This document shows positions 1,684-29,581 of a stretch of DNA of 32,422 nt, in pieces; position 1 is the stretch's first letter; every line of letters begins with the position of its first letter. The DNA lies in NCBI GenBank assembly GCA_029838215.1, contig JALGVI010000030.1, forward strand, positions 1 to 32,422, read 5' to 3'. The DNA comes from Candidatus Helarchaeota archaeon (GTDB lineage: Archaea; Asgardarchaeota; Lokiarchaeia; Helarchaeales; RDOG01). The notes beneath the pieces were generated by a model. That model was not told the DNA's origin. It did not search any database and saw nothing but the letters and a program-made list of their open reading frames with translations. The position numbers and the translations under genes are program-made.

Positions 1684-2676
1684 ATGCGAATGAATGATGG
1701 TAGTGATGATTTTTCCGACTCTAGGTATTCCGATAACGACTGGACTTCGCAGGATGCGAAAACAGTAATTGATGAGTTTAAAAAAATTCATGAAATTGAA
1801 GAAGACATCGTACCCATATCTGAAGGAGTGAGTGATGTCTCAGAAGTCACGATCGAATTAGAAGCCTTACGAAAAATGCTTTTCCACGTGTATGAATTCG
1901 GCAACTTTGAAGATGCAATAAAAAAGTGGAAAGAAGTTTACGGGTTAATGATAGGAAGAATCGAATATGGTCGATTGATCATAACAGATGCAGCACCCAT
2001 TACCCATGGAACGGCTCGTGGCGTGGAATTTAAGAAAGATGATTACGTGTTCGCAGCAAAACTCAATGACATGATAACTGCAGACACTGAACGAAAAGAG
2101 TTTTTCGTTGGATGGTATCATAGCCATCCCGCCATTGGCTTGTTTCTATCAGGAGTGGATTTAGTTAACCATTTAGGATATCAATTAGTAAATGAAGTTG
2201 CGGCGGCAATCGTCTTCGATCATTGTCTTCTTCTTGAAAAACAGATCCCGTTCAAAGTATTTCGTCTTGATTCGGTGGACTTCTCGAGCCAAGATGATTT
2301 GGGTTATCATGAAGTTAGTTACATCATTCCAGGGATCAGCGAAGAAGAACAATTCCTTTTAGCAAGGGAAATGCACGATGAAATAGCCAAGGATTTGAAA
2401 AAAACACGCAGCAATTCAGCAGAGAAATTGTTCCGCAAGCAAGTAGAAAGCGAATATAGGGAATTCATGAAAAGAGTTAGAAAAGAACACATTGAATACG
2501 AAAAAACGGATTATAAGAAATTACGAAAGGGAAAGAAGGTCAGCAAGGCCAACCGTACTGCTCCCAGGAAAAAAGGCGGAAAGAAAAAACCAAAGGCGAA
2601 AAAAGCAAAAAAATCGAAGAAAACAAAGAAAGCAAAGGAGAAAAAGAAATCTAAAAAATCAAAGAAGAAGTCTTAA
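1684..2676 (+). CDS. JAMM/MPN+ (Rpn11/CSN5-like) metallo-isopeptidase with C-terminal helices and Lys-rich tail
   Basis: KEVYGLMIG (catalytic Glu) and GWYHSHPAIGLFLSGVD form an intact E...HxH-x7-S-x2-D motif. Confidence 0.9.
   Translation: MRMNDGSDDFSDSRYSDNDWTSQDAKTVIDEFKKIHEIEEDIVPISEGVSDVSEVTIELEALRKMLFHVYEFGNFEDAIKKWKEVYGLMIGRIEYGRLIITDAAPITHGTARGVEFKKDDYVFAAKLNDMITADTERKEFFVGWYHSHPAIGLFLSGVDLVNHLGYQLVNEVAAAIVFDHCLLLEKQIPFKVFRLDSVDFSSQDDLGYHEVSYIIPGISEEEQFLLAREMHDEIAKDLKKTRSNSAEKLFRKQVESEYREFMKRVRKEHIEYEKTDYKKLRKGKKVSKANRTAPRKKGGKKKPKAKKAKKSKKTKKAKEKKKSKKSKKKS
2515..2673 (+). repeat. Lys-rich low-complexity coding tract (KKAKKSKKTKKAK-type)
   Basis: The last ~53 codons of the MPN gene are dominated by AAA/AAG. 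Confidence 0.85.
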
Positions 2677-3252: not shown

Positions 3253-3771
3253 TCATACGTTGATGTCTTCAGGACGATCTTCAAAGGCACGAAGTGGAAT
3301 ATCTTTACAGATACCATCGGGAGTAGTGCGTCGAATGGTGAGCGGTAAGATTTTTAGCTTTAGCTCGTATTCAGCAATGGAGATGGGTTCTTTTTTCACG
3401 TATGGAGGAATTTCAGACACCAGTATGGGAGCGGACATTGAGATTTGCAGGGCTCTTGCACCTATGATCCTGGAGCGTTCATACTTGGTTAGATATCGAG
3501 GTCCAATCCAATCGATTTTGATTTTTTTCAATCCTTCACGGACTAATTCGTCAATACTTGCCTCAATATCTTCAACGTGCACTTCCACTTCATCTTCAAG
3601 TTCGGTTTCTTCAGGGATTTCGACCTTTTTTTTCTTGGCTTTCTTTATTGTTTTCTTTATTTTTCGGACTTTTTTAGCCTTCTTGGCTCTTTTTGTTTTT
3701 TTTGCTTTTTTTGCTGTTTTTTTCGCTTTAGGCGTTTTTTTAGAAGAAGTTTTCTTTTTTGCCTTACCCAT
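3253..3771 (-). CDS. rpoK: DNA-directed RNA polymerase subunit Rpo6/RpoK (RPB6 homolog) with long basic+acidic N-terminal extension
   Basis: LTKYERSRIIGARALQISMSAP...IAEYEL...LPLTIRR..PDG matches the RPB6/Rpo6 core. Confidence 0.95.
   Translation of the reverse strand: MGKAKKKTSSKKTPKAKKTAKKAKKTKRAKKAKKVRKIKKTIKKAKKKKVEIPEETELEDEVEVHVEDIEASIDELVREGLKKIKIDWIGPRYLTKYERSRIIGARALQISMSAPILVSEIPPYVKKEPISIAEYELKLKILPLTIRRTTPDGICKDIPLRAFEDRPEDINV
3625..3771 (-). repeat. Lys-rich low-complexity coding tract (H1-like) at the RpoK N-terminus
   Basis: The first 49 aa contain 27 Lys, 2 Arg and no acidic residue. Confidence 0.85.
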
Positions 3772-3881: not shown

Positions 3882-5549
3882 TCAAGTTCTCAAGAAATCC
3901 GAGCTTGATTTTCTAATAACTCCTGATAAGAGATTCAAACGGATCATATCTTCCAAAAGGAGAATAATTTGAGTATTAGTTATTGCAACTCTTTCGTGAA
4001 TTTCTTGAAATGTCAATACACCATCGTCTTTTTCTTTGACCATTTGAATGATCAGCTCCCGAATACCCATTTCATTTACGAGCTGGTCATCTTTAATGTC
4101 ATAAAAGAGGTTACGTAAGAATCCATTTTGTTTTAAATCAGTAATGATCTCGCGAAGCACCAATTCTGAATAGTTCAATCGTTCAGAAATTTCTTTTATC
4201 GTCATTTTTGCCTTAGAACCGACAAGTTGAGTAACTTCAGTCGTGAAGGAATTGATCCAATCCGGAACATCCTTTGGAAATTCTTCAATTTCTTCAATCG
4301 TGAATTCAAGCTTATGATAGTCGGACCCTGTCGCCAAGTTCGGATCATTCAACCTGTAAATGTCGAATCCATAATTCTTACGTCTCTCATCATACTTGGT
4401 GTGGTCAAATACGAGGGCAATGGCTTTTGGATTAGCACTTTGAAAGCCTAAATGATTGATGATGTCAGTGTGAGAAAGGAATAGATTTAACCCGGGATGG
4501 CTATGATACCATCCAACTATGAATTCACCCTTACCTTCAGCATAAAGAGCGTCATCAATTTGAGCTGCCTTGATATAATGTTCATCCTTGAATGCAAATT
4601 CGGAGGAGCTGCCAGACATTATTGGCACCGCATCCACGCAAAAAACATCGTCTCCTTCAATCCGACCTATCAGCCATCCGGCTGTCTCCACCCATTTACT
4701 CTCAGGAATACCACTATTAGCATAATATAACATGTGAAGCATCATGTTACGATATGCCTTGCAATTTATGATGACTTTTCCTTTTTCCTTGATTTGAGCT
4801 TTTTGGAGGTGAAGCTTATCATCATTTACGAAATTTGACAATACCTTGTGGAAAGTACCTAGTAAATTTGCCCTCAATGCCGGTCCTGCAAATGATAATC
4901 GGTCAGATTGGGGCTCTATTGATGAAACGAGAATGTCCTTTGCTTCACTTGCTTTTCCTTCTAATAAGTATTTTAAGAACAGCGTTAGATCGAGACCCAT
5001 TCCAGAAACATCAAGCATTTCAAGTTCTTGCATGTGGACATTTATCAGAGACATGGCTTCTTCTTTTTTGTTTAAGAGGAGAAAGATAATTGCCTTGAAA
5101 TTCTGATAAATTATTGCTCTTTCATGTATGAACCTCTTTAGGACACCTTCTTCCAGATCAACTCGTTTTTTTGTAAAATCAATTGCCTTATCGAAAAACT
5201 TTAATGCCGTCTGAAGATTCTTATCGCCTTCAGTATCATCAAATGAAAGGAGACATGTTCCAATGTCTGCACAACATTTAGCAATATGTTCCAAGGTATT
5301 CGCCTTTTCTGCAGAACTTTTCGATATAACTTTAATTGATTCGTCAAATACCTTGATTGCTTTTTTATATTCACCCAGTTCTGAAAAACAAGCAGCCGCA
5401 CGGTAAAGAAACGTGGCAATCTTTAATTCTCTATCATCAGCTTCACTTTTTTTAACTTCTGAAATCAAAGCCAAATAAATTTTTATGGCATCTTGGAATT
5501 TACCCTGGGTTTCCATTAAATGGGCTTTTTCTTCCATTGACATGCCCAA
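3882..5549 (-). CDS. multidomain protein: TPR-like helical repeats + JAMM/MPN+ + two winged-helix (PCI-like) domains
   Basis: TPR-like motifs (AAACFSELGEYKKAIKVFDESI); MPN with VETAGWLIG and GWYHSHPGLNLFLSHTD; C-terminal MTIKEISERL...LREIITDLKQNG and LTFQEIHERV...LLEDMIRLNLLSGVI. The start may be ATG 5543 rather than TTG 5549. Confidence 0.85.
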   Translation of the reverse strand: MGMSMEEKAHLMETQGKFQDAIKIYLALISEVKKSEADDRELKIATFLYRAAACFSELGEYKKAIKVFDESIKVISKSSAEKANTLEHIAKCCADIGTCLLSFDDTEGDKNLQTALKFFDKAIDFTKKRVDLEEGVLKRFIHERAIIYQNFKAIIFLLLNKKEEAMSLINVHMQELEMLDVSGMGLDLTLFLKYLLEGKASEAKDILVSSIEPQSDRLSFAGPALRANLLGTFHKVLSNFVNDDKLHLQKAQIKEKGKVIINCKAYRNMMLHMLYYANSGIPESKWVETAGWLIGRIEGDDVFCVDAVPIMSGSSSEFAFKDEHYIKAAQIDDALYAEGKGEFIVGWYHSHPGLNLFLSHTDIINHLGFQSANPKAIALVFDHTKYDERRKNYGFDIYRLNDPNLATGSDYHKLEFTIEEIEEFPKDVPDWINSFTTEVTQLVGSKAKMTIKEISERLNYSELVLREIITDLKQNGFLRNLFYDIKDDQLVNEMGIRELIIQMVKEKDDGVLTFQEIHERVAITNTQIILLLEDMIRLNLLSGVIRKSSSDFLRT

Positions 5550-5570: not shown

Positions 5571-6119
5571 TTAATCAACCTTAATATTTTTCACGAGTGC
5601 TTTAGCCAATGTAGTAAAGGCTTCATTGACATTTTTATTTTCCTTAGCAGAGGTCTCTATGAAATCAATGCACCCGATTCGTTCTTTCAACGCCTTGCCT
5701 TCTTCAGAGGATACTTCCTTGTTCTCCAAATCGATCTTGTTTGCTATGAGTACTTTCTGGTGATTTCCTTGTATGTGTTTTTCACAGTTTGGTAGCCAAT
5801 CAGTTTCAATTCTGTTAAACGTGGATTTTCTTGATACATCGTAGACAATTAGCACTCCTTGACTTCCTTGGAAATATACATTTAGCATTTGCGCCCAACG
5901 ATCCTGTTGACCAGCCAAATCCCATAGAGTAAACTTGATCTTCGTGCCATCATCAAGTTCCAAAGTCTTTAGGTATATATTTGCACCCATCGTTGATTTA
6001 TATTCTTCACTGAACTTATCCGTTACGTATTTTTTCACGAGTGATGTTTTGCCTACGGCAGGTTCGCCGATCAGAATCACCTTAAACACATATAGCGGTA
6101 GCTTCTTCATATCTTGCAC
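5571..6119 (-). CDS. Rab-like small GTPase (Ras superfamily)
   Basis: G1 GEPAVGKT, G2 YKSTMG, G3 WDLAGQ, G4 NKID, G5 ETSAK. No C-terminal prenylation Cys. Confidence 0.95.
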   Translation of the reverse strand: MQDMKKLPLYVFKVILIGEPAVGKTSLVKKYVTDKFSEEYKSTMGANIYLKTLELDDGTKIKFTLWDLAGQQDRWAQMLNVYFQGSQGVLIVYDVSRKSTFNRIETDWLPNCEKHIQGNHQKVLIANKIDLENKEVSSEEGKALKERIGCIDFIETSAKENKNVNEAFTTLAKALVKNIKVD

Positions 6120-8566: not shown

Positions 8567-9454
8567 ATGGCTTGGCAACCATACGAGATTCTGGATAAAA
8601 CAGAAAATACGGAAAATATTTACAAGATAATCGTCCTAGGGGATGGATTTGTAGGTAAGACAGCCATTACCGTCAGATTTTGCGAAAATCAGTTCAAAGA
8701 TGAATACATCATGACCATTGGGGTCAATTTTGGAACAAAGAAATTTCGTTATAAAGGAACGTCCTATACGCTTCAAATTTGGGATATTGCAGGTCAAGAG
8801 AGATTTGGGGCTTTTAGAACTTCGTATTATAGTGCTGCTGTAGGCGTAATTTTGGTTTATGACGTAACGAATAAGTTGACATTTCTTGATCTACCAAATT
8901 GGACTTGTGAATTTCAACAATTAATTGGAACCAAACCTGTAGTCGTAGTTGGCAACAAGCTAGACTTGCCGGACTCGGGACAGGTTGACTCAAGAACGGG
9001 CAGACCTTATGAGAAACAGGTGGGTTTCAAAGAAGGTAAGTGCTTTGCAGATTCCATAAATGCGACTTTTCTTGAGACTTCAGCAAAGGGAAATTATAAT
9101 ATTGATAACATGTTTACGGCTTTGGTAGATTCGGTAGATGAAAAATTGTTTTCAAACATGCTCAATGTAAATTCGTTTAATTCGATTGATTTAGGCTTTA
9201 ATAAGCTCTATAGTCTCGTTTCAGGAAATGACGTCAGCAAGATTTACGACTCATTAATGATGCTAAAGCATTCTATTTTTCAACAAAATCCATATTCTGT
9301 GGTGCTTGGGAATATAAACGAGTGGATAAATTACCTGCCAAAGGCTCCTTATACATCAGAAGTTAGTAGCTTATTACTTAAAAGCATGGATGTCTGGCAA
9401 CAATATTATGAGCAGAGCTTGAAAGAAGGCGAGGCAGTCTCTTCAAGAATTTAA
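8567..9454 (+). CDS. Rab-like small GTPase with G4-alpha4 insert and ~100 aa C-terminal extra domain
   Basis: GDGFVGKT, YIMTIGVNF, QIWDIAGQERF, LVYDVT, NKLD, ETSAK; SD-like GGAGGG upstream. Confidence 0.93.
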   Translation: MAWQPYEILDKTENTENIYKIIVLGDGFVGKTAITVRFCENQFKDEYIMTIGVNFGTKKFRYKGTSYTLQIWDIAGQERFGAFRTSYYSAAVGVILVYDVTNKLTFLDLPNWTCEFQQLIGTKPVVVVGNKLDLPDSGQVDSRTGRPYEKQVGFKEGKCFADSINATFLETSAKGNYNIDNMFTALVDSVDEKLFSNMLNVNSFNSIDLGFNKLYSLVSGNDVSKIYDSLMMLKHSIFQQNPYSVVLGNINEWINYLPKAPYTSEVSSLLLKSMDVWQQYYEQSLKEGEAVSSRI

Positions 9455-9557: not shown

Positions 9558-10601
9558 TTATCGTTTGAAGAAAAAATTGTGACTCAAGAGCTGCACGGTC
9601 GCAATAATGGTAACCAACATGATAAAAATTGTCGTGATCATGAAAAAATAGGACAGAATCGTCAAGGTTATAAAGCCGACATTGAGTACAAGTGTTGACA
9701 GCAATGTATTTCGTAGAAATTCCTTTTTTGATGGTTTATCCTCAAACCGGATTATAAAGGTGAATAAAGCAGCGATTGCAAGAAGGATAAACGGAAAAAG
9801 AAGCCACATCATTGGATCTTGGAACGATTCATTTAGTGTATTATTAAAATGCGGGGCGGTGGCAACATCAACGATGAGATGTAACCAATTCATTGTATAA
9901 AACGCGCCATATTGATTAATTAGGATCTCAGGTCCAGAACAGACAAATCCGTTATTGATTATCCGATTGAGATAAATGGGAGTTCCATCTTCGAGAAAGA
10001 CAACGGTATACCAATGTAGTGGAGTTTCCGCGGCATATGCATTGTAACCAAGATATTGCAAGAAAGAAGCGGTTACCACTGCCTGAGCTTGACAGTCGCC
10101 GTGACCTGAAATTAATGCTTCGGTAGGTGTCGCCACTCGGAGAATGACGAAATATTGGAAGTGGATGTTCAAGTATTGAATCTTGAAAAGACAAAAATCG
10201 CTAATCAATTCGAGTTTTGCCGGTTTATCGAGGGCCGCAAATTCCGTTTCATTGATGCTTTTTGATGAGTTCAGCCAGTCGTATAACATGTTCGGTTCAG
10301 AGGAATTAAGTGCGGTTACGGCGGGAGCATTCGGAGTGATCAGGGTGGAAACATTGACGTGTCGATAGAATTGTTCGGGCCAAATAAAAGGATTCGAAAC
10401 CAGAATGAAGAAACAAATGAATAATGCTATTGGTAGCTTGCCCGCGCGCCGCCAAAAATTCTTTTTTCGCAAGCAACAAATTCCGGTAATGAGGACGATT
10501 ATTAATAGTCCAGAAATGAATGCGAAATAAATCGTAATTAAGAAAATGTAAAAAATGAGTAATGGAATTCCCACGTATAGAAAGAATTTCTTCCAATTCA
10601 A
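9558..10601 (-). CDS. polytopic membrane protein with transglutaminase-like (Cys-protease fold) domain
   Basis: TPTEALISGHGDCQAQAVVTASFLQYLG (catalytic Cys) and HWYTVV (His). About 3 N-terminal and 3 C-terminal TM helices; several N-glycosylation sequons in the soluble domain. Confidence 0.8.
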   Translation of the reverse strand: MNWKKFFLYVGIPLLIFYIFLITIYFAFISGLLIIVLITGICCLRKKNFWRRAGKLPIALFICFFILVSNPFIWPEQFYRHVNVSTLITPNAPAVTALNSSEPNMLYDWLNSSKSINETEFAALDKPAKLELISDFCLFKIQYLNIHFQYFVILRVATPTEALISGHGDCQAQAVVTASFLQYLGYNAYAAETPLHWYTVVFLEDGTPIYLNRIINNGFVCSGPEILINQYGAFYTMNWLHLIVDVATAPHFNNTLNESFQDPMMWLLFPFILLAIAALFTFIIRFEDKPSKKEFLRNTLLSTLVLNVGFITLTILSYFFMITTIFIMLVTIIATVQLLSHNFFFKR

Positions 10602-10611
10602 AGGAAACCCA

Positions 10612-11466
10612 TCATTCTTCGATATTTATGATCTTGTAGTTGTGTTTCCATGCAGGTATGTTTTCAAGCATGGCTTGACGGCTTTGTTCGTTCCAACCGT
10701 AATTTTCGAGGTAACGAATCCATTGCGTCATGTTCTGCACGGTTACGGAAAAAGGGACTTCCTTAAATATGGAGTATCGAGTGATTTTAAGAGCCACCGT
10801 TGCAGCTGCTTGGTTGTCAATGGTTTTCAAGATTTGTTCCAGTTCATCAAATGCTTGATCGATGGGCAATGCTTTAACCTTAGGTATCATGATGGACTGC
10901 CTGTGTTCTTTAATGAGATCGTAAATGCTTGCGAATAGGCGATTGATATTCCGACCGCTTTTCGCAGATACTTCGATATATGGTGCGTTAATATATTTGG
11001 CAAAATTTTCGGCTTCATCCGGAGCAACCATTCGGTCAGGCAAATCAACCTTGTTTCCTACGACGATCATCGGCGTCCTGCCTGTTTCATCCTGAAATTC
11101 CAGAACCCAGTTCTCAAGGTTTCCAAAAGATTCATAGACGGTTGTATCAAAAACGAGAATTCCACAAGATGCACCCCGATAATACATGTTTCTCAGGCTT
11201 TTGAATCGGCTTTGTCCTGCAACATCCCAGATTTGGTATTTCATATTTTTTCCATCAAGACGCAAAGATTTTATGAAGAAGTCGGCACCGATCGTCATTT
11301 TATAGCCTGATTTGAAAAGCCCCTTACAGAATCGGGTTCCAATAGCGGTTTTTCCAACGGCTCCGTCACCCAGAAGTATCAATTTATAGAGAGCATCATA
11401 CTCGGCATTATCAGGAAGCGTTTCCAATTGAATGTCATCATCGTCGGATTGGGAAATAATCATCAC
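10612..11466 (-). CDS. Rab-like small GTPase with ~95 aa C-terminal extra domain
   Basis: EYDALYKLILLGDGAVGKT, YKMTIGADF, QIWDVAGQSRF, YYRGA, NKVD, EVSAK. Confidence 0.93.
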   Translation of the reverse strand: MMIISQSDDDDIQLETLPDNAEYDALYKLILLGDGAVGKTAIGTRFCKGLFKSGYKMTIGADFFIKSLRLDGKNMKYQIWDVAGQSRFKSLRNMYYRGASCGILVFDTTVYESFGNLENWVLEFQDETGRTPMIVVGNKVDLPDRMVAPDEAENFAKYINAPYIEVSAKSGRNINRLFASIYDLIKEHRQSIMIPKVKALPIDQAFDELEQILKTIDNQAAATVALKITRYSIFKEVPFSVTVQNMTQWIRYLENYGWNEQSRQAMLENIPAWKHNYKIINIEE

Positions 11467-14018: not shown

Positions 14019-15371
<1,353 letters not shown>

Positions 15372-23969: not shown

Positions 23970-25217
23970 TCAAGGATAGATACCTCGAAGTTCAATGGCA
24001 CGAGCAATTCTGGCGATACCGACTAAATACGCGGCATTTCTAAAGTCAGTTTTTTCCTTTTCATACATTTTATATACATCATCGAAAGCATGTGCGAGGA
24101 TTCGTTTGAGTTCGTGGTTCACGCGGTCAAGATCCCAAAAGAATGAATGCAAGTCCTGTACCCATTCAAAATATGAACAGGTAACGCCTCCAGCATTGGC
24201 TAGAATGTCGGGAACAACGATGATATCACGTTCTTCCAGAATTTTATCAGCCGAACTCAGCGTTGGACCATTCGCACCCTCGATTATGGTCTTCGCTTCG
24301 GTCGTTTCTGCTATTTTATCATTGATTTGATTTTCAAGAGCGCAAGGCAAGAGAAAGTCACATTTCAATCTCAAGAGATCTTCGTTACTGATGAAAGTAG
24401 TTCCATCGAACTCCACGACAGAACCAGTCTTTTGTTCGTGATTCTTTAATTCGATCATGTCCATTCCATCGGGATTATAAACCCCGCCTTTTTCATCGCT
24501 TACTGCAACGATCTTACAGTTATGTCGTTCATATAAAAATCGTGCAATGGCAGAACCGACATTTCCAAACCCCTGAATGGCTATCGTAGTCGATGAGTCG
24601 AGCTTTTGCTTCGTTTTTTTGCAAAATTCTTCCATTATGTAAAGCATTCCTTGACCCGTTGCGGTTTCTCGACCAAGAGAGCCGCCAATATCAATCGGTT
24701 TCCCGGTAACGACTCCAAGACTGGTCTCTCCGACATTCATCGAATAAGTATCCATTATCCAAGCCATAATTTGAGAATTTGTATTCACATCAGGAGCTGG
24801 AATGTCCCGCCATGGAGAAAACGTCCCGATCATTGATGTATATCGGCGAGTCAAACGCTCAATCTCATTAATTGAAAGTTCCTGTGGATTACAGATGATT
24901 CCTCCTTTCGCACCCCCGTATGGAAGCCCTACTACGGAAGTCTTCATGGACATCCAAAAAGCGAGTGCCTTTACTTCATCAAGGGTGACTTGTGGATGGA
25001 ATCTCACGCCTCCTTTAGTTGGACCGCGAGCTGAAGAATGTAATACTCGAATTCCAGTAAAACATTCAATTTTGCCATTATCTCTTCTAATAGGGAGATT
25101 TACAATGTTTATTCTCTCACAATTTTTAAGAATTACGAGAATATCCTTATTTAGATTTAGGAAATCGGCTGCCTTGTCAAGCTGAGCCATTGCATTATCC
25201 CATGGTGATATTTCCAT
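23970..25217 (-). CDS. gdh: Glu/Leu/Phe/Val dehydrogenase, glutamate dehydrogenase (GudB/archaeal type)
   Basis: PTKGGVRFHP, MSMKT, YGGAKGG, DIPAPDVNT, TGKP..GGSLGRETATGQG, QGFGNVG, GGVTCSYFEWVQ. The start is placed at ATG 25217. Confidence 0.93.
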   Translation of the reverse strand: MEISPWDNAMAQLDKAADFLNLNKDILVILKNCERINIVNLPIRRDNGKIECFTGIRVLHSSARGPTKGGVRFHPQVTLDEVKALAFWMSMKTSVVGLPYGGAKGGIICNPQELSINEIERLTRRYTSMIGTFSPWRDIPAPDVNTNSQIMAWIMDTYSMNVGETSLGVVTGKPIDIGGSLGRETATGQGMLYIMEEFCKKTKQKLDSSTTIAIQGFGNVGSAIARFLYERHNCKIVAVSDEKGGVYNPDGMDMIELKNHEQKTGSVVEFDGTTFISNEDLLRLKCDFLLPCALENQINDKIAETTEAKTIIEGANGPTLSSADKILEERDIIVVPDILANAGGVTCSYFEWVQDLHSFFWDLDRVNHELKRILAHAFDDVYKMYEKEKTDFRNAAYLVGIARIARAIELRGIYP

Positions 25218-25339
25218 AAAAATTTCACCTCCAAAGAAATGAAGAACTACAATTAAGACTTCCCTGATTCCCATTTAAAAAGTAGTCTTGGAATCAAGTC
25301 AAAAAAAAAGATGAAATGGTTAAGTAAAGAGTGGTTAGC

Positions 25340-25842: not shown

Positions 25843-26640
25843 TCATTTTCCAACAAAATTGGGCTTTTTTTTCTCGTTTAGAGCAAATACACCGATGCGA
25901 TAATCTTCAGTACCGGCTGATTCAACCTGTATTTGACGTTCCACTTCTAAGTGATCATCAAGACTTTTCGTGTAGGATTTCAAAAACAATTCTTTAGTTC
26001 TTGCATATGCAAGAGTCGGACCTTTTGCTAATCTTTCTGCGTGTTCAAGTGCAACTTTCTCTAGGTCTTCCGGTTTGACAACTTTATTGATAAGTCCCAA
26101 CTCGAGTAATTCTTGAGCGGAAATAATGTCGCCAAAGAAACAGAATTCAGCGGCTTTTGCCCATGGAACTTGTCGGGGTAGAAGAAACGTGCCACCGAAT
26201 CCAGGAATCAATGCAAGTTTGGAGAAGCTTTCAGCAAATCGAGCCTTATCTGAGGCGATGATGATATCGCAACATAGTGCCAAATTCATTCCGGCACCCA
26301 TTGCGTAACCGTTTACTGCCGCAACTATGGGTTTTGGAAACTTTCGGAGCTCATATCCAATGCCGTAAAGTAGTCGCGTAAGATCGTCCATGTATTCCTT
26401 TGAACGGTTTTTCTCAATTGATGCTTTCATTCCTTTAATATCTCCTCCTGCACTAAAACTCCGCCCAGAACCGGTAATCAGAAGGCATCTTACACCATCA
26501 TCATCTTTCAAATCATTTAAAATCTGAGTAAGTTCTTTTCCCGTATTAATGTCTAGCGGGTTTAACTTTTCCGTGTTAATGAAGCGAATGAGTGCAACGT
26601 CACTCGCCAATTTTTCAACAGATAAATTTTGAAATGTCAT
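25843..26640 (-). CDS. enoyl-CoA hydratase/isomerase (crotonase) family protein
   Basis: ITGSGRSFSAGGDI, PIVAAVNGYAMGAG, LALIPGFGG. The probable start is ATG 26640 (ORF track 26655). Confidence 0.93.
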   Translation of the reverse strand: MTFQNLSVEKLASDVALIRFINTEKLNPLDINTGKELTQILNDLKDDDGVRCLLITGSGRSFSAGGDIKGMKASIEKNRSKEYMDDLTRLLYGIGYELRKFPKPIVAAVNGYAMGAGMNLALCCDIIIASDKARFAESFSKLALIPGFGGTFLLPRQVPWAKAAEFCFFGDIISAQELLELGLINKVVKPEDLEKVALEHAERLAKGPTLAYARTKELFLKSYTKSLDDHLEVERQIQVESAGTEDYRIGVFALNEKKKPNFVGK

Positions 26641-26739
26641 AAAATTCACCTGCATGATTTTTCATCAAAAATAAAGAAAAGTTTTTCTTAAAAAATCAAG
26701 GAATTACTTAACAAAGCCATTAATTTCATGTGAGGACTG

Positions 26740-27534
26740 ATGATGGATCTCAAGTATATTCAATACGAAAAGAAAGATGGAATCGCCACGATAACATTAA
26801 ATACGCCCAAGAATTTAAATGCTCTTAATGTTCCGACTTGTTCGGAATTACTCGAAGCCCTAACCGATTGTGAAAAAGACGAATCCATTCGTGCAGTGAT
26901 TTTTACAGGAGCTGGACGCATTTTTTCATCAGGTGGTAACATCAAGGAATTTAAGGACCACGTTGATAAGGGAACTTCTCCCAAATTGATTGGGGACATC
27001 ACGGGTGTCATGCACCCTTGTGCGGTGAAATTAGCCACCATGCCAAAACCAGTCATATGTAAGATAAAACACGGTGCTTATGGTGCAGGATTGAGTTTGG
27101 CTTTGGCTTGTGATCTCGTGTATGCATCAGACGATGCCATTCTTGACACGGCATTTTTCTCGGTGGGTTTGACGGTTGATGGCACGGGTACTTATTCAGT
27201 TCCGCGCATCATTGGAATCAAAAAAGCAAAAGAATTCTTCTGGTTAAAGAAGTTTTCCGCCATAGAAGCCGAAGAATGGGGACTCATAAATAAAGCCATT
27301 CCCATTGACGAAATAGATAAATTTGTTGATGACATCGCCAAAAGACTTGCTAATGGACCGACCTTGGCGATTGCCCGATCAAAAACATTATTGAATAAGA
27401 CGTTCCTGCAAACCATAGAACAACAGGGAGATGACGAGCGCACCTTTCAAATTGAGATCGCCGCTACAGACGATTTTGCAGAAGGTGTAAGAGCATTCTT
27501 GGAAAAAAGAGCTGCAAACTTCAAAGGAAAATAA
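26740..27534 (+). CDS. enoyl-CoA hydratase/isomerase (PaaG-like) family protein
   Basis: FTGAGRIFSSGGNI, GAYGAGLSLALACD, GLTVDGTGT, EGVRAFLEKR. Confidence 0.93.
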   Translation: MMDLKYIQYEKKDGIATITLNTPKNLNALNVPTCSELLEALTDCEKDESIRAVIFTGAGRIFSSGGNIKEFKDHVDKGTSPKLIGDITGVMHPCAVKLATMPKPVICKIKHGAYGAGLSLALACDLVYASDDAILDTAFFSVGLTVDGTGTYSVPRIIGIKKAKEFFWLKKFSAIEAEEWGLINKAIPIDEIDKFVDDIAKRLANGPTLAIARSKTLLNKTFLQTIEQQGDDERTFQIEIAATDDFAEGVRAFLEKRAANFKGK

Positions 27535-27550
27535 TAAAGCTCCGTTTTTT

Positions 27551-28771
27551 TTATTTTAATTGATTTTTTCGTGCCTTTATCGAATGGATCATGTAATTTA
27601 ATTTCATCAATGAGTTTACGGCTTTCATTACAAGGACAATCTTTGAGTTGGTAAAGGCATTATTTTCGTATTCTTTTATCGTTCTCCGTGCGACCTTGAG
27701 CATGGCATCCAAAGCTTCTTCTTGGTTGGCTCCAAAATTCCAGCGTGGGTTCAGGCACGGAATGGTTTTTCGTTTTCGTAATAAAGTCCGGAAATCTTCT
27801 AAATCTTCCAATGGTCTTGAAAGGCATGTAGAGCCAGAACCGATTAATCGCATGTCATGAGCGTCCGAGTTTGCCACGGCGGGCAGGTTCCATTTTTTAC
27901 CAAATCGATCAGCCATCCAGTTGAAATAGCCCATGAGAAGAAGTAGTTTTCCGAATAGATTGCTGTGAGGCATTTCTGAAGCATGTTGGATGAAGAAGTC
28001 ATCAAAAATCAAGCCAGTCGATAAATTTATTGTTTCAAAACCATCGGCTTTTCTCCATGCTTCCAGATTTGCATCCTTATCAATTGTCGTGATTTGGCAA
28101 CCAGAAGGACCAAATGGATGCGGTAAGATAACGAGTCCCCCTTCCTCATGAACTTTCTCAATGAATTCTGCTGGCGGCATCAATCCGATTTTGGCCGTTC
28201 CACCCAATTTCGTGATGAAATCTCGAGGAATGCCCAGTGCCAAGATCTCGCGGTCAAACCGATCCCCTTTTTCCCTGTGACCCGTGTTAAATTCAGATCC
28301 AGAAAATACAATAAAGTGCTCGGGAAGCTTGCCGTTCTTCTTAAATTCATTTATCTTATCAACGAATTGCCACGATGCTTCCAAGCACTTGTCATTGGGG
28401 ATAAACCGTCCGTTCTCCGTAAACAGGGAATGATCCGTGAGTGAAATCCCATCAAGAAAGAGTCGCCCCTTATAATGAGTCCCTGCTAGATATTTAGCGA
28501 TATTTTCTATAGAATCGTGACCATCTGAAACGGAAGAATGCACGTGATTATCGTAATAAAATCCATTCACGTCAGGGCAGGAGTATGGATAGATATCTTG
28601 AGCCGCAGAGAGATATTTTAGAAAAAAGAGGGTTAATTGAGGAAGCTTTGCATACGGAGGAAGCCGCCTGTTCACGCGGAAATCTAAAAGATTCCATAGT
28701 CGTTTTGGCATTGGGAAATAATCGTCATTAATCTCGGGATTTGTTCGATATTTCTTAAAGACAGATGGCAT
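27551..28771 (-). CDS. PHP-domain metallophosphoesterase-like protein
   Basis: DNHVHSSVSDG, LTDH, GSEF, ILPHPF, ANSDAH. Confidence 0.85.
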   Translation of the reverse strand: MPSVFKKYRTNPEINDDYFPMPKRLWNLLDFRVNRRLPPYAKLPQLTLFFLKYLSAAQDIYPYSCPDVNGFYYDNHVHSSVSDGHDSIENIAKYLAGTHYKGRLFLDGISLTDHSLFTENGRFIPNDKCLEASWQFVDKINEFKKNGKLPEHFIVFSGSEFNTGHREKGDRFDREILALGIPRDFITKLGGTAKIGLMPPAEFIEKVHEEGGLVILPHPFGPSGCQITTIDKDANLEAWRKADGFETINLSTGLIFDDFFIQHASEMPHSNLFGKLLLLMGYFNWMADRFGKKWNLPAVANSDAHDMRLIGSGSTCLSRPLEDLEDFRTLLRKRKTIPCLNPRWNFGANQEEALDAMLKVARRTIKEYENNAFTNSKIVLVMKAVNSLMKLNYMIHSIKARKNQLK

Positions 28772-28795
28772 GCGATCACTGGTAAAAATTTTAGA

Positions 28796-29581
28796 TTAGA
28801 AAAAGCTCTCGTCAAGATATTTTTCCTTGAGTTTCTGGAGTAAATCTTTCTTTTCTTTACCCCTAGATTGAACCACTTCGAGTGCCTCATTTTCGATGGA
28901 CATTCCTTCAGCCAATCCCACGGAAGCACACTTGTCAAATACGGTTAATATTGACGACATCACGGTGGAATCCATTGAACCCAATTTTCGTGCAAGTTCC
29001 ATTCCTGCATTTTCCATTTCTTCTTTAGTATCGAACAATTGATCGATGAGACCCATTTTTTCTGCTAAGGGCACTTTAATCTTGTCTCCCGTGCACAGGA
29101 TGAATTTGGCATCAGATGGTTTTCGGACTATTTTCGAAGTAATCGTCATCCCTCCGTGTGTTGGAAACATGAATTTATATTTAATTTCAGGGAGTGAAAA
29201 CACCACATCTTTAGTACAATATCTGAAATCACAAGCGAAGGTCACGAGACATCCAATTCCAATGGCATATCCGTGCACTAAAGCGATTTTTGGCACGGGA
29301 AAGTTATAGAGAAGTCCCATGAATTCTTGTCCAGTGTTCAAGAATACATCAACATTTCCAGATTCTTTTAAATCAAATCCTGCACTGAATGCACGATTTC
29401 CACTTCCACGAATGACAATCACGCGGACTTTTGGATCTTTTTTAAGTTCAAGAAGTGCATCACGAAATAGCATGACTTGCTCACTATCAAAGAGATTCAT
29501 GTCTCCATTCGAGAGTGTAATTAATGCAATTCTTTTGATTCTTTCTACAATCACTTTTTTGTTTGGGTAATTATCACTCAT
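28796..29581 (-). CDS. enoyl-CoA hydratase/isomerase family protein
   Basis: RGSGNRAFSAGFDL, PKIALVHGYAIGIG, FSLPEI. Confidence 0.9.
   Translation of the reverse strand: MSDNYPNKKVIVERIKRIALITLSNGDMNLFDSEQVMLFRDALLELKKDPKVRVIVIRGSGNRAFSAGFDLKESGNVDVFLNTGQEFMGLLYNFPVPKIALVHGYAIGIGCLVTFACDFRYCTKDVVFSLPEIKYKFMFPTHGGMTITSKIVRKPSDAKFILCTGDKIKVPLAEKMGLIDQLFDTKEEMENAGMELARKLGSMDSTVMSSILTVFDKCASVGLAEGMSIENEALEVVQSRGKEKKDLLQKLKEKYLDESFF

Follow-up and report, generated by a model that had tools for sequence, protein, structure and literature searches.

A putative JAMM isopeptidase combining a TPR arm, an active-type MPN domain and tandem winged helices in one archaeal chain

Is an archaeal protein that carries the building blocks of the proteasome lid in a single chain a forerunner of that complex, or an enzyme put together independently from similar parts? 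The question is raised by a gene on the 32,422-nucleotide contig JALGVI010000030.1 (hereafter the window, i.e. the whole stretch of DNA analysed) from a Candidatus Helarchaeota archaeon (assembly GCA_029838215.1). The product, here called the fusion protein, consists of an N-terminal arm of tetratricopeptide repeats (TPRs), a JAMM-type MPN domain and two C-terminal winged helices (WHs), and a first-pass annotation of the window saw in it a candidate proto-lid or signalosome subunit. The lid of the proteasome, the COP9 signalosome (CSN) and eIF3, together the PCI/MPN complexes, are regarded as eukaryotic inventions. PCI complexes have been stated as not known in archaea, and the JAMM proteins of Asgard archaea and Caldiarchaeum have been placed closest to Rpn11 (Fuchs et al. 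2018, PMC6043591). PCI-like WHs and TPRs have been mentioned in Asgard ESCRT-associated proteins, but not in the architecture considered here (Makarova et al. 2024, PMC10936438).

The TPR-MPN-WH-WH family is real, conserved and unusual: it is a putative JAMM deubiquitinase with novel accessory modules. Our preferred reading, held at a probability of roughly 0.6, is that the fusion protein would act as a GTPase-coupled, scaffold-targeted JAMM isopeptidase (a deubiquitinase or a deconjugase of ubiquitin-like modifiers) of the Asgard ubiquitin system, and that it is a lineage-specific fusion. We found no description of a TPR-MPN-PCI fusion in the literature searched, a search that did not extend to the supplementary asCOG tables. 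The architecture had been put forward as undescribed, and this holds for the papers; one orthologue (P0008) does bear the automatic NCBI pipeline name 'PCI domain-containing protein'.

Domain architecture and the catalytic site

The fusion gene lies in a long open reading frame (ORF) that spans 3882..5549 if started at TTG; its strand, for which the first-pass annotation has no entry, is the minus strand. An ATG at 5543, two codons inside this frame, is the likely start and gives a 553-residue product, which is 100% identical to the public database protein P0002, itself beginning at the same ATG. Residue numbers follow P0002 throughout and equal those of the first-pass annotation minus 2. We modelled the full-length protein with AlphaFold2 (AF2) from an 11-sequence orthologue alignment, with a mean predicted local distance difference test score (pLDDT) of 80 and a predicted template modelling score (pTM) of 0.51, the latter leaving the arrangement of the domains relative to one another uncertain. 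The model has 11 helices in residues 3-238, a low-confidence stretch at 241-251, the MPN domain at 256-417, a long helix at 426-442 and two winged helices. The domain content originally read from the sequence, that is, TPR-like helical repeats, a complete JAMM domain and two C-terminal WHs in one chain with the MPN between the helical arm and the WHs, is borne out in each of these points by the models and domain searches.

The MPN domain matches Pfam JAB (PF01398) at residues 269-374 (E 2e-12, 47.4 bits against a cut-off of 22.5). None of the 11 full-length orthologues departs from E286, H347-S-H349, S357 and D360, and the motif was confirmed on the DNA; the WYHSHPG core (345-351) and NPKA-x-ALVFD (371-380) are invariant as well. 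E286 is expected to be the general base and H347, H349 and D360 the zinc ligands, with S357 a further conserved position. As read from the sequence, every feature required for catalysis is present in this active-type (MPN+) domain, and the strict invariance of the active site in all orthologues argues for catalysis. A segment at about 307-323 aligns with the Ins-1 of Rpn11 and of CsRpn11, the Caldiarchaeum subterraneum enzyme, and is of similar length, with P307, I308, G311, E315, F318, H322 and Y323 invariant. In CsRpn11 and Rpn11, Ins-1 pairs with the ubiquitin tail.

Searches of the MPN domain against PDB sequences, with phmmer and with a profile, respectively, match CsRpn11 (E 7e-14 and 3e-22), Rpn11 (1e-11 and 5e-17), CSN5 (5e-9 and 2e-14), BRCC36 (5e-7 and 2e-9) and AMSH (sst2; 3e-5 and 2e-8), an order of relatives that is a rough one, taken from PDB bit scores. 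By structure, Foldseek matches Rpn11 at E 1.6e-8, and the VIA structure scan gives Z 15.8 for Rpn11, 15.0 for CsRpn11 and 13.8 for CSN5.

No solved structure matches the sequence better than CsRpn11 (PDB 6FJU, 6FJV and 6FNN; PMC6043591). This archaeal MPN+ enzyme is free-standing and belongs to a eukaryote-like ubiquitin system, with the same JAMM motif, an aligned Ins-1 and 28% identity in the structural alignment; it differs in having only 228 residues, in being encoded beside a ubiquitin/E1/E2/E3 operon and in lacking both the TPR arm and the winged helices. Eukaryotic Rpn11 and CSN5 share the MPN+ fold and motif and likewise act alongside PCI-type WH scaffolds. In these complexes, however, PCI and MPN reside on separate subunits, whereas the fusion protein has everything in one chain; Rpn11 and CSN5 also have an inactive MPN-minus partner and contribute to a C-terminal helical bundle, where the fusion protein has WHs instead. 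AMSH and AMSH-LP resemble it in that an N-terminal helical recruitment module precedes a constitutively complete MPN+ domain, AMSH being recruited to ESCRT. AMSH is more distant in sequence and has no WHs, and its three-helix MIT contrasts with a 5.5-repeat TPR arm. AMSH also carries a second zinc site in Ins-2, and none is seen in the fusion protein.

By type, the N-terminal arm belongs with the canonical TPRs of kinesin light chain, LGN and SNAP. Pfam TPR_12 matches residues 7-74 with 33.3 bits against a cut-off of 30.1, TPR_1 and TPR_2 are matched in 11 of 11 family members, and the arms of some orthologues show faint MIT and SNAP matches. In the VIA scan of the whole model, the arm matches KLC2 (Z 16.6), LGN (16.2) and gamma-SNAP (15.6), as well as HAP40, BtubC, Rap phosphatases, NASP and p67phox. 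The arm profile searched against the PDB retrieves consensus TPR proteins (E down to 1e-45), KLC, STIP1, OGT and alpha-SNAP, and like canonical TPR proteins the arm fits the 34-residue helix-turn-helix repeat profiles. No PCI-subunit solenoid is among the top rows of the whole-model scan or the arm-profile search, although such an absence is not proof. In the PCI domain (PF01399) the helical repeats pack directly on the WH, whereas here the MPN domain and linker (residues 239-425) stand between a canonical TPR arm and WH1. Because the MPN lies between them, the fusion protein has no contiguous unit of helical repeats plus WH and hence no contiguous PCI domain.

The winged helices and their structural relatives

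Modelled alone, the C-terminal 136 residues form two canonical a1-b1-a2-a3-b2-b3 winged helices (WH1 and WH2) with a pLDDT of 91 and a pTM of 0.80. After the helix at 426-442 the chain holds only these two domains and ends in the wing of WH2, with no C-terminal bundle helices. The WH1 and WH2 profiles match each other (hhalign probability 95.7%, E 9e-9), which places the two in one WH class, probably the product of an internal duplication. The wing of WH2 is the most conserved element of the C-terminal region in the orthologue alignment. In lid and CSN structures, the wing of PCI proteins makes inter-subunit contacts.

Pfam PCI is matched in 5 of the 11 orthologues and exceeds the curated 22-bit cut-off in four of them, on WH2 in P0007 (37.2 bits), P0008 (27.0 bits) and P0009 (26.7 bits) and on WH1 in P0011 (30.3 bits). 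In each PCI-matching orthologue, PCI outscores the next helix-turn-helix (HTH) family by some four to five orders of magnitude, and the wing pattern [LM]-I-x-x-G-x-I-x-G-x-I resembles that of PCI domains. The window's own protein has no Pfam PCI match at E <= 0.01. Of the original suggestion that WH2 follows the PCI pattern, what stands is the match of the three orthologues that pass Pfam PCI on this domain, together with the structural ranks; for the window's own copy the Pfam match is missing.

Our classification of the WHs rests on VIA-align ranks, from an exhaustive scan of the C-terminal model against 48,161 PDB representatives. A UFL1-DDRGK1 chimera is matched over 131 residues covering both WHs (Z 10.5, root-mean-square deviation (rmsd) 4.6 A), followed by a human lid PCI subunit (Z 9.9, rmsd 1.4 A over 64 residues of WH2, 22% identity), DDRGK1 (Z 9.8, WH2), CSN3 (9.6), PCID2 (9.5, WH2), CSN7 (9.4 and 9.2, WH2), eIF3m (8.5), CSN4 (8.3) and Csn12 (8.2). 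WH2 superposes on PCI WHs of the lid, CSN, eIF3 and TREX-2 at Z 8-10 with an rmsd of 1.2-1.7 A over 62-64 residues, and WH1 matches the WHs of eIF3c and a lid PCI subunit at Z 7-7.8. DNA-binding WHs (BirA, E2F-DP and MarR-type) reach Z <=8.5, mostly 7-7.7, with an rmsd of 2-3 A; the lead of the PCI class over them is only 1-2 Z units. Foldseek with the same model returns nothing from the PDB at E <= 1e-3, UFL1/DDRGK1 appearing at E 1.7e-3 (TMq 0.49). As a well-supported rank order, then, the WHs are of PCI/UFL1 type and unlike DNA-binding regulators; compared with the Lrp/AsnC, MarR and Rrf2 regulators they have no basic recognition helix and no family-profile match. Sequence alone cannot classify them, since all matches of the C-terminal profile to PDB sequences are non-significant (Lrp/AsnC 0.005, eS25 0.006, DDRGK1 0.03, CSN2 0.09 and CSN4 0.4).

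Of the solved structures, only the UFL1/DDRGK1 array of the UFM1 E3 ligase (PDB 8B9X and 8OHD) covers the two WHs in a single match, with modest scores. The fusion WHs carry no sequence-level UFL1 or DDRGK signal, and UFL1 itself, a ligase scaffold, has no protease domain. Among ESM-Atlas folds, the best match of the tandem WHs is an archaeal (Promethearchaeota) UFL1/DDRGK/PCI cluster, with a template modelling (TM) score of 0.56; it comprises 77 proteins of about 788 residues in which Pfam E3_UFM1_ligase, DDRGK and PCI occur together. The host genome itself has a marginal E3_UFM1_ligase match in a 484-residue frame (contig C85:26041-26505 (-), locus L033; 26.6 bits against a cut-off of 23.2).

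GTPase pairing, distribution and genomic context

Immediately upstream of the fusion gene lies a gene for a Rab/Ras-like small GTPase (Table 1). A GTPase gene precedes the fusion gene by 21-44 nucleotides (nt) in 5 of 7 loci (the window, L020, L021, L036 and L037), and the pair is present at the P0007, P0006, P0008 and P0003 loci. In the paired loci the fusion proteins share only about 40% identity with that of the window, or 63% in the case of P0003; the GTPases compared, from the P0006 and P0007 loci, are 65-71% identical. In the family tree the pair occurs on either side of the deepest split. The two genes are probably co-transcribed. Genes for a RimI-type GNAT and an M50 protease adjoin the pair in 4 of 4 orthologous loci, and Rpo6 follows only at the P0007 and P0008 loci; this wider conservation is general synteny, not an operon.

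An exhaustive HMMER search over 1.84 billion representative proteins found about 1000 MPN relatives and only a handful of full-architecture clusters (P0002, P0006, P0009 and P0012); P0087, P0088 and P0089 are shorter TPR-MPN-WH1 forms of about 480 residues. In the one-WH member P0088 (685 residues, metagenomic), the TPR arm is duplicated in tandem, some 205 extra N-terminal residues repeating the arm pattern. A search with the arm profile through 400 genomes of the phylum retrieves the family from 7, none of them outside the order to which the window belongs (6 of 6 further genomes of this order have it, as against 0 of 393 in the rest of the phylum). Database relatives carry the NCBI labels Helarchaeota, Lokiarchaeota or Promethearchaeota. 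Presence in all genomes of the order searched and absence elsewhere fit a conserved, lineage-specific function, and the narrow distribution argues against an ancestral role. No longer fused forms (969-2765 residues, for example with a GTPase) were found, which is weak evidence.

In the MPN-domain tree the one-WH forms are nested among the two-WH forms, which suggests that the one-WH subclade lost WH2. An MPN-only tree that includes Asgard paralogues has unresolved basal branches (75/70 support), and monophyly relative to the paralogues is not shown by the MPN alone. Other MPN proteins of about 240 residues with a single PCI-like WH exist elsewhere (for example P0143), from which it follows that the MPN-WH unit predates the TPR fusion. 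A lineage-specific joining of Asgard modules that already existed agrees with this pattern; a relic of a lid ancestor does not. A 242-residue MPN+ protein with a single C-terminal WH just under the Pfam PCI cut-off (19-21 bits) is also encoded in the host genome (contig C160, locus L012 1486-2214 (+)).

The ubiquitin system of the host genome includes ubiquitin and an E2 on contig C112, more E2s on C122 and C161 and a weaker E2-family match on C155. JAB-family matches number nine. We did not find an MPN-minus partner of the Rpn8/CSN6 type among them: 8 of 8 JAB paralogues with loci keep H-x-H...S-x-x-D (one of them with x8 spacing), the ninth, weak match being left out. At 50% identity, the closest paralogue of the fusion MPN is encoded on C161 by a JAB-coiled-coil gene. 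At its locus (L032 5730-7620 (+)), an E2 (UQ_con) gene overlaps the start of this gene, which encodes a 482-residue protein with JAB and an apolipoprotein-like coiled coil; this paralogue group, of about 450-600 residues, is common in Hel- and Lokiarchaeota. A genome-wide PF01399 search for a separate PCI subunit gave four matches, none over the cut-off, though divergent PCI proteins could escape Pfam; the two inspected are a membrane-associated WH protein and an HTH protein of 1000+ residues.

A second JAB/MPN+ gene lies 2 kb from the fusion gene (1684-2676 (+)) and encodes 330 residues with the JAMM motif HSHPAIGLFLSGVD, its MPN being 39% identical to that of the fusion protein. We considered it as an Rpn8-like partner and rejected it, since its JAMM motif is intact and none of the four orthologous loci that cover the downstream side contains it. 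Its adjacency to the fusion gene looks genome-specific.

The neighbours of the fusion gene (Rpo6/RNA polymerase subunit K, three Ras/Rab-like GTPases, GNAT acetyltransferases and an M50 protease) mark an Asgard archaeon; GC is about 37% and the host genome is 94% complete. The Rpo6/RpoK ORF (3253-3771 (-)) has 172 residues, with the Rpb6 core only at residues 92-138, and in L020 and L036 its syntenic orthologues are annotated with 115 residues; a wrongly called start codon may account for the long basic N-terminal extension, or it may be peculiar to this genome. Two Ras-family GTPases, at 8567-9454 (+) and 10612-11466 (-) with 295 and 284 residues, have C-terminal extensions of about 100 residues each, and the 347-residue ORF between them (9558-10601) has no Pfam match. 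Further along (14022-15371 (+), 23970-25274 (-) and 25843-29581), the window holds two paralogues of glutamate/leucine dehydrogenase and three genes for enoyl-CoA hydratase, as well as glutamine synthetase, NAD synthase and an AMP-binding ligase, a neighbourhood of amino-acid and fatty-acid catabolism that is unrelated to the fusion gene.

Table 1. Coordinates of the fusion gene, its parts and the paired GTPase gene in the window
Feature	Position	Strand	Details
TPR-MPN(+)-WH-WH fusion gene	3882..5543	-	ATG 5543; in-frame TTG 5549; stop 3882-3884
N-terminal TPR arm	4830..5537	-	residues 3-238, 11 helices, ~5.5 repeats; Pfam TPR_12/TPR_1/TPR_2, AF2
MPN+/JAMM metalloisopeptidase domain	4293..4778	-	residues 256-417; Pfam JAB, PDB phmmer, Foldseek, VIA
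E286 codon, expected catalytic glutamate of JAMM	4686..4688	-	invariant in 11 orthologues; translation WVET
JAMM zinc site H347-S-H349-x7-S357-x2-D360	4464..4505	-	HSHPGLNLFLSHTD; orthologue alignment and DNA translation
WH1	4077..4268	-	residues 426-489; long a1 426-442 straight after MPN; AF2 C-terminal model
WH2	3885..4076	-	residues 490-553; conserved wing G-x-I-R-x-x-S-x-D-F-L-K at C-terminus; AF2
Rab/Ras-like small GTPase gene	5571..6119	-	182 residues, ends 28 nt before fusion ATG; Pfam Ras E 1.7e-48

Proposed function, alternatives and significance

In the reading that we prefer, the fusion protein would be a soluble zinc-dependent JAMM isopeptidase with a protein-docking module on either side of its Rpn11/CSN5-like catalytic domain. 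It would remove ubiquitin, or a ubiquitin-like modifier from the genome's ubiquitin/E2 systems, from selected substrates, and the TPR arm and tandem WHs would choose the substrate or the site of action by binding partner proteins. In the clades with the gene pair, the upstream GTPase may switch or localise the enzyme, perhaps via the TPR arm, a coupling that would resemble the binding of Rac by the TPRs of p67phox or the MIT-domain recruitment of AMSH. The protein is, in our estimation, probably one built from eukaryote-like parts and compositionally analogous to PCI/MPN complexes, rather than their forerunner.

Several observations weigh against this reading. The fusion gene lies outside any ubiquitin/E1/E2 operon. 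The GTPase pair is absent in two subclades, at the P0011 and P0087 loci (L022 and L038), which means that the GTPase link cannot be essential to the core function of the family. Because the pTM of the full-length model is only 0.51, contact between the arm and the WHs in three dimensions cannot be read from it. Finally, the Pfam PCI model also matches ordinary prokaryotic WHs in four control prokaryotes, and because of this, of the small Z margin and of the empty Foldseek search, 'PCI-type' is a well-supported rank order with no sharp class boundary.

The original proposal was that the protein assembles, with itself or with partners, via PCI-type WHs into a lid- or CSN-like scaffold that regulates the MPN+ site, possibly on PAN/20S, as an ancestral or a convergent complex. 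In its favour, three module types are united in one chain, Rpn11 and CSN5 are the nearest eukaryotic families of the MPN, WH2 superposes closely on the PCI WHs of the lid, CSN, eIF3 and TREX-2, and its wing, the inter-subunit sheet element of PCI complexes, is the best conserved part of the C-terminus. We nevertheless consider it distinctly unlikely. Only one order has the family (7 of 400 genomes), the arm is an ordinary TPR without a PCI-solenoid match and is split from the WHs by the MPN, there are no C-terminal helices for a helical bundle, the genome yielded neither an MPN-minus partner nor a free PCI subunit over the cut-off, one subclade retains a single WH, and the best two-WH match is the intramolecular UFL1/DDRGK1 array, not an inter-subunit horseshoe. 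The 'proto-lid' and 'ancestor-like' labels in particular find no support in the distribution, the canonical arm, the partner searches or the one-WH subclade. When residues 252-553 were modelled as two copies from their own alignment, the homodimer prediction reached 0.00 where the mark is 0.42, and it counts neither way. Less likely still is a variant in which the protein would be the core of an archaeal PCI/MPN-type machine not seen before: copies of it, or copies together with unrecognised partners, would assemble via the WH2 wing into a scaffold with the active site gated by the GTP state of the Rab-like GTPase, so that the lid/CSN plan would have evolved independently in one Asgard order.

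Other explanations concern the target and the role of the WHs. The JAMM domain might act on something other than ubiquitin conjugates (a SAMP/Urm1-type target, the maturation of ubiquitin-like precursors only, or a non-Ubl peptide bond), or the protein might be a scaffold with incidental protease activity. Prokaryotic JAMM proteins do include desampylases and precursor-processing enzymes, a weak NCBIfam desampylase match is seen (E 0.006), the ubiquitin, E1 and E2 genes are not adjacent to the fusion gene and CsRpn11 is itself reported to process the ubiquitin precursor (PMC6043591). We rate this as unlikely: archaeal JAMM1 and desampylase are far less similar than CsRpn11, Rpn11 and CSN5, the paralogue nearest to the fusion MPN is linked to an E2 gene, and incidental activity sits poorly with a whole active site that is strictly invariant in all orthologues. 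Binding of nucleic acid by the tandem WHs, as in a DNA regulator or, like UFL1/DDRGK1 on the 60S, on RNA or the ribosome, would make the protein a chromatin- or ribosome-tethered isopeptidase. This could draw on Pfam matches to Rrf2, HTH_24 and HTH_11 at residues 441-479, on the Lrp/AsnC-type regulators and eS25 at E ~0.005 in the profile search, on the PDB titles that show UFL1/DDRGK1, structurally the best match of the tandem WHs, docked on the 60S ribosome and on a C-terminal region that is basic in 4 of 10 members. The Pfam HTH matches, however, are all below their own cut-offs and the profile matches below significance, and the fold search ranks DNA-binding WHs under PCI-type ones. Nor do the WHs share a conserved basic surface. 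Their a3 helices, in WH1 and WH2 alike, are mostly hydrophobic, with a neutral to acidic net charge of -3 to +1, and in 6 of 10 members, the window's protein (pI 4.8) among them, the C-terminal region has an acidic isoelectric point (pI) of 4.5-5.1; charge in both places argues against a conserved nucleic-acid-binding role, which we regard as highly improbable. That the WHs might prove to be ordinary DNA-binding ones had been foreseen from the start, and this is not what we find.

Returning to the scaffold-targeted isopeptidase, the elements new to this analysis are the GTPase pairing, the UFL1/DDRGK1-type match of the tandem WHs, the WH1-WH2 duplication signal, the inferred loss of WH2 and the E2-linked closest paralogue. 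The pairing with a Rab-like GTPase offers a concrete setting in which to test whether a small GTPase controls the removal of ubiquitin in a prokaryote, and the protein, predicted to be soluble and of moderate size with clear active-site mutants, should be tractable for biochemistry and structure determination. More broadly, Asgard archaea own Rpn11-like active-type MPN domains and PCI-type WHs and have combined them in cis at least once. The narrow distribution points to lineage-specific tinkering with a shared domain toolkit, not to a direct ancestor of the lid, a distinction that bears on how 'eukaryotic signature' architectures are counted in scenarios of eukaryogenesis.

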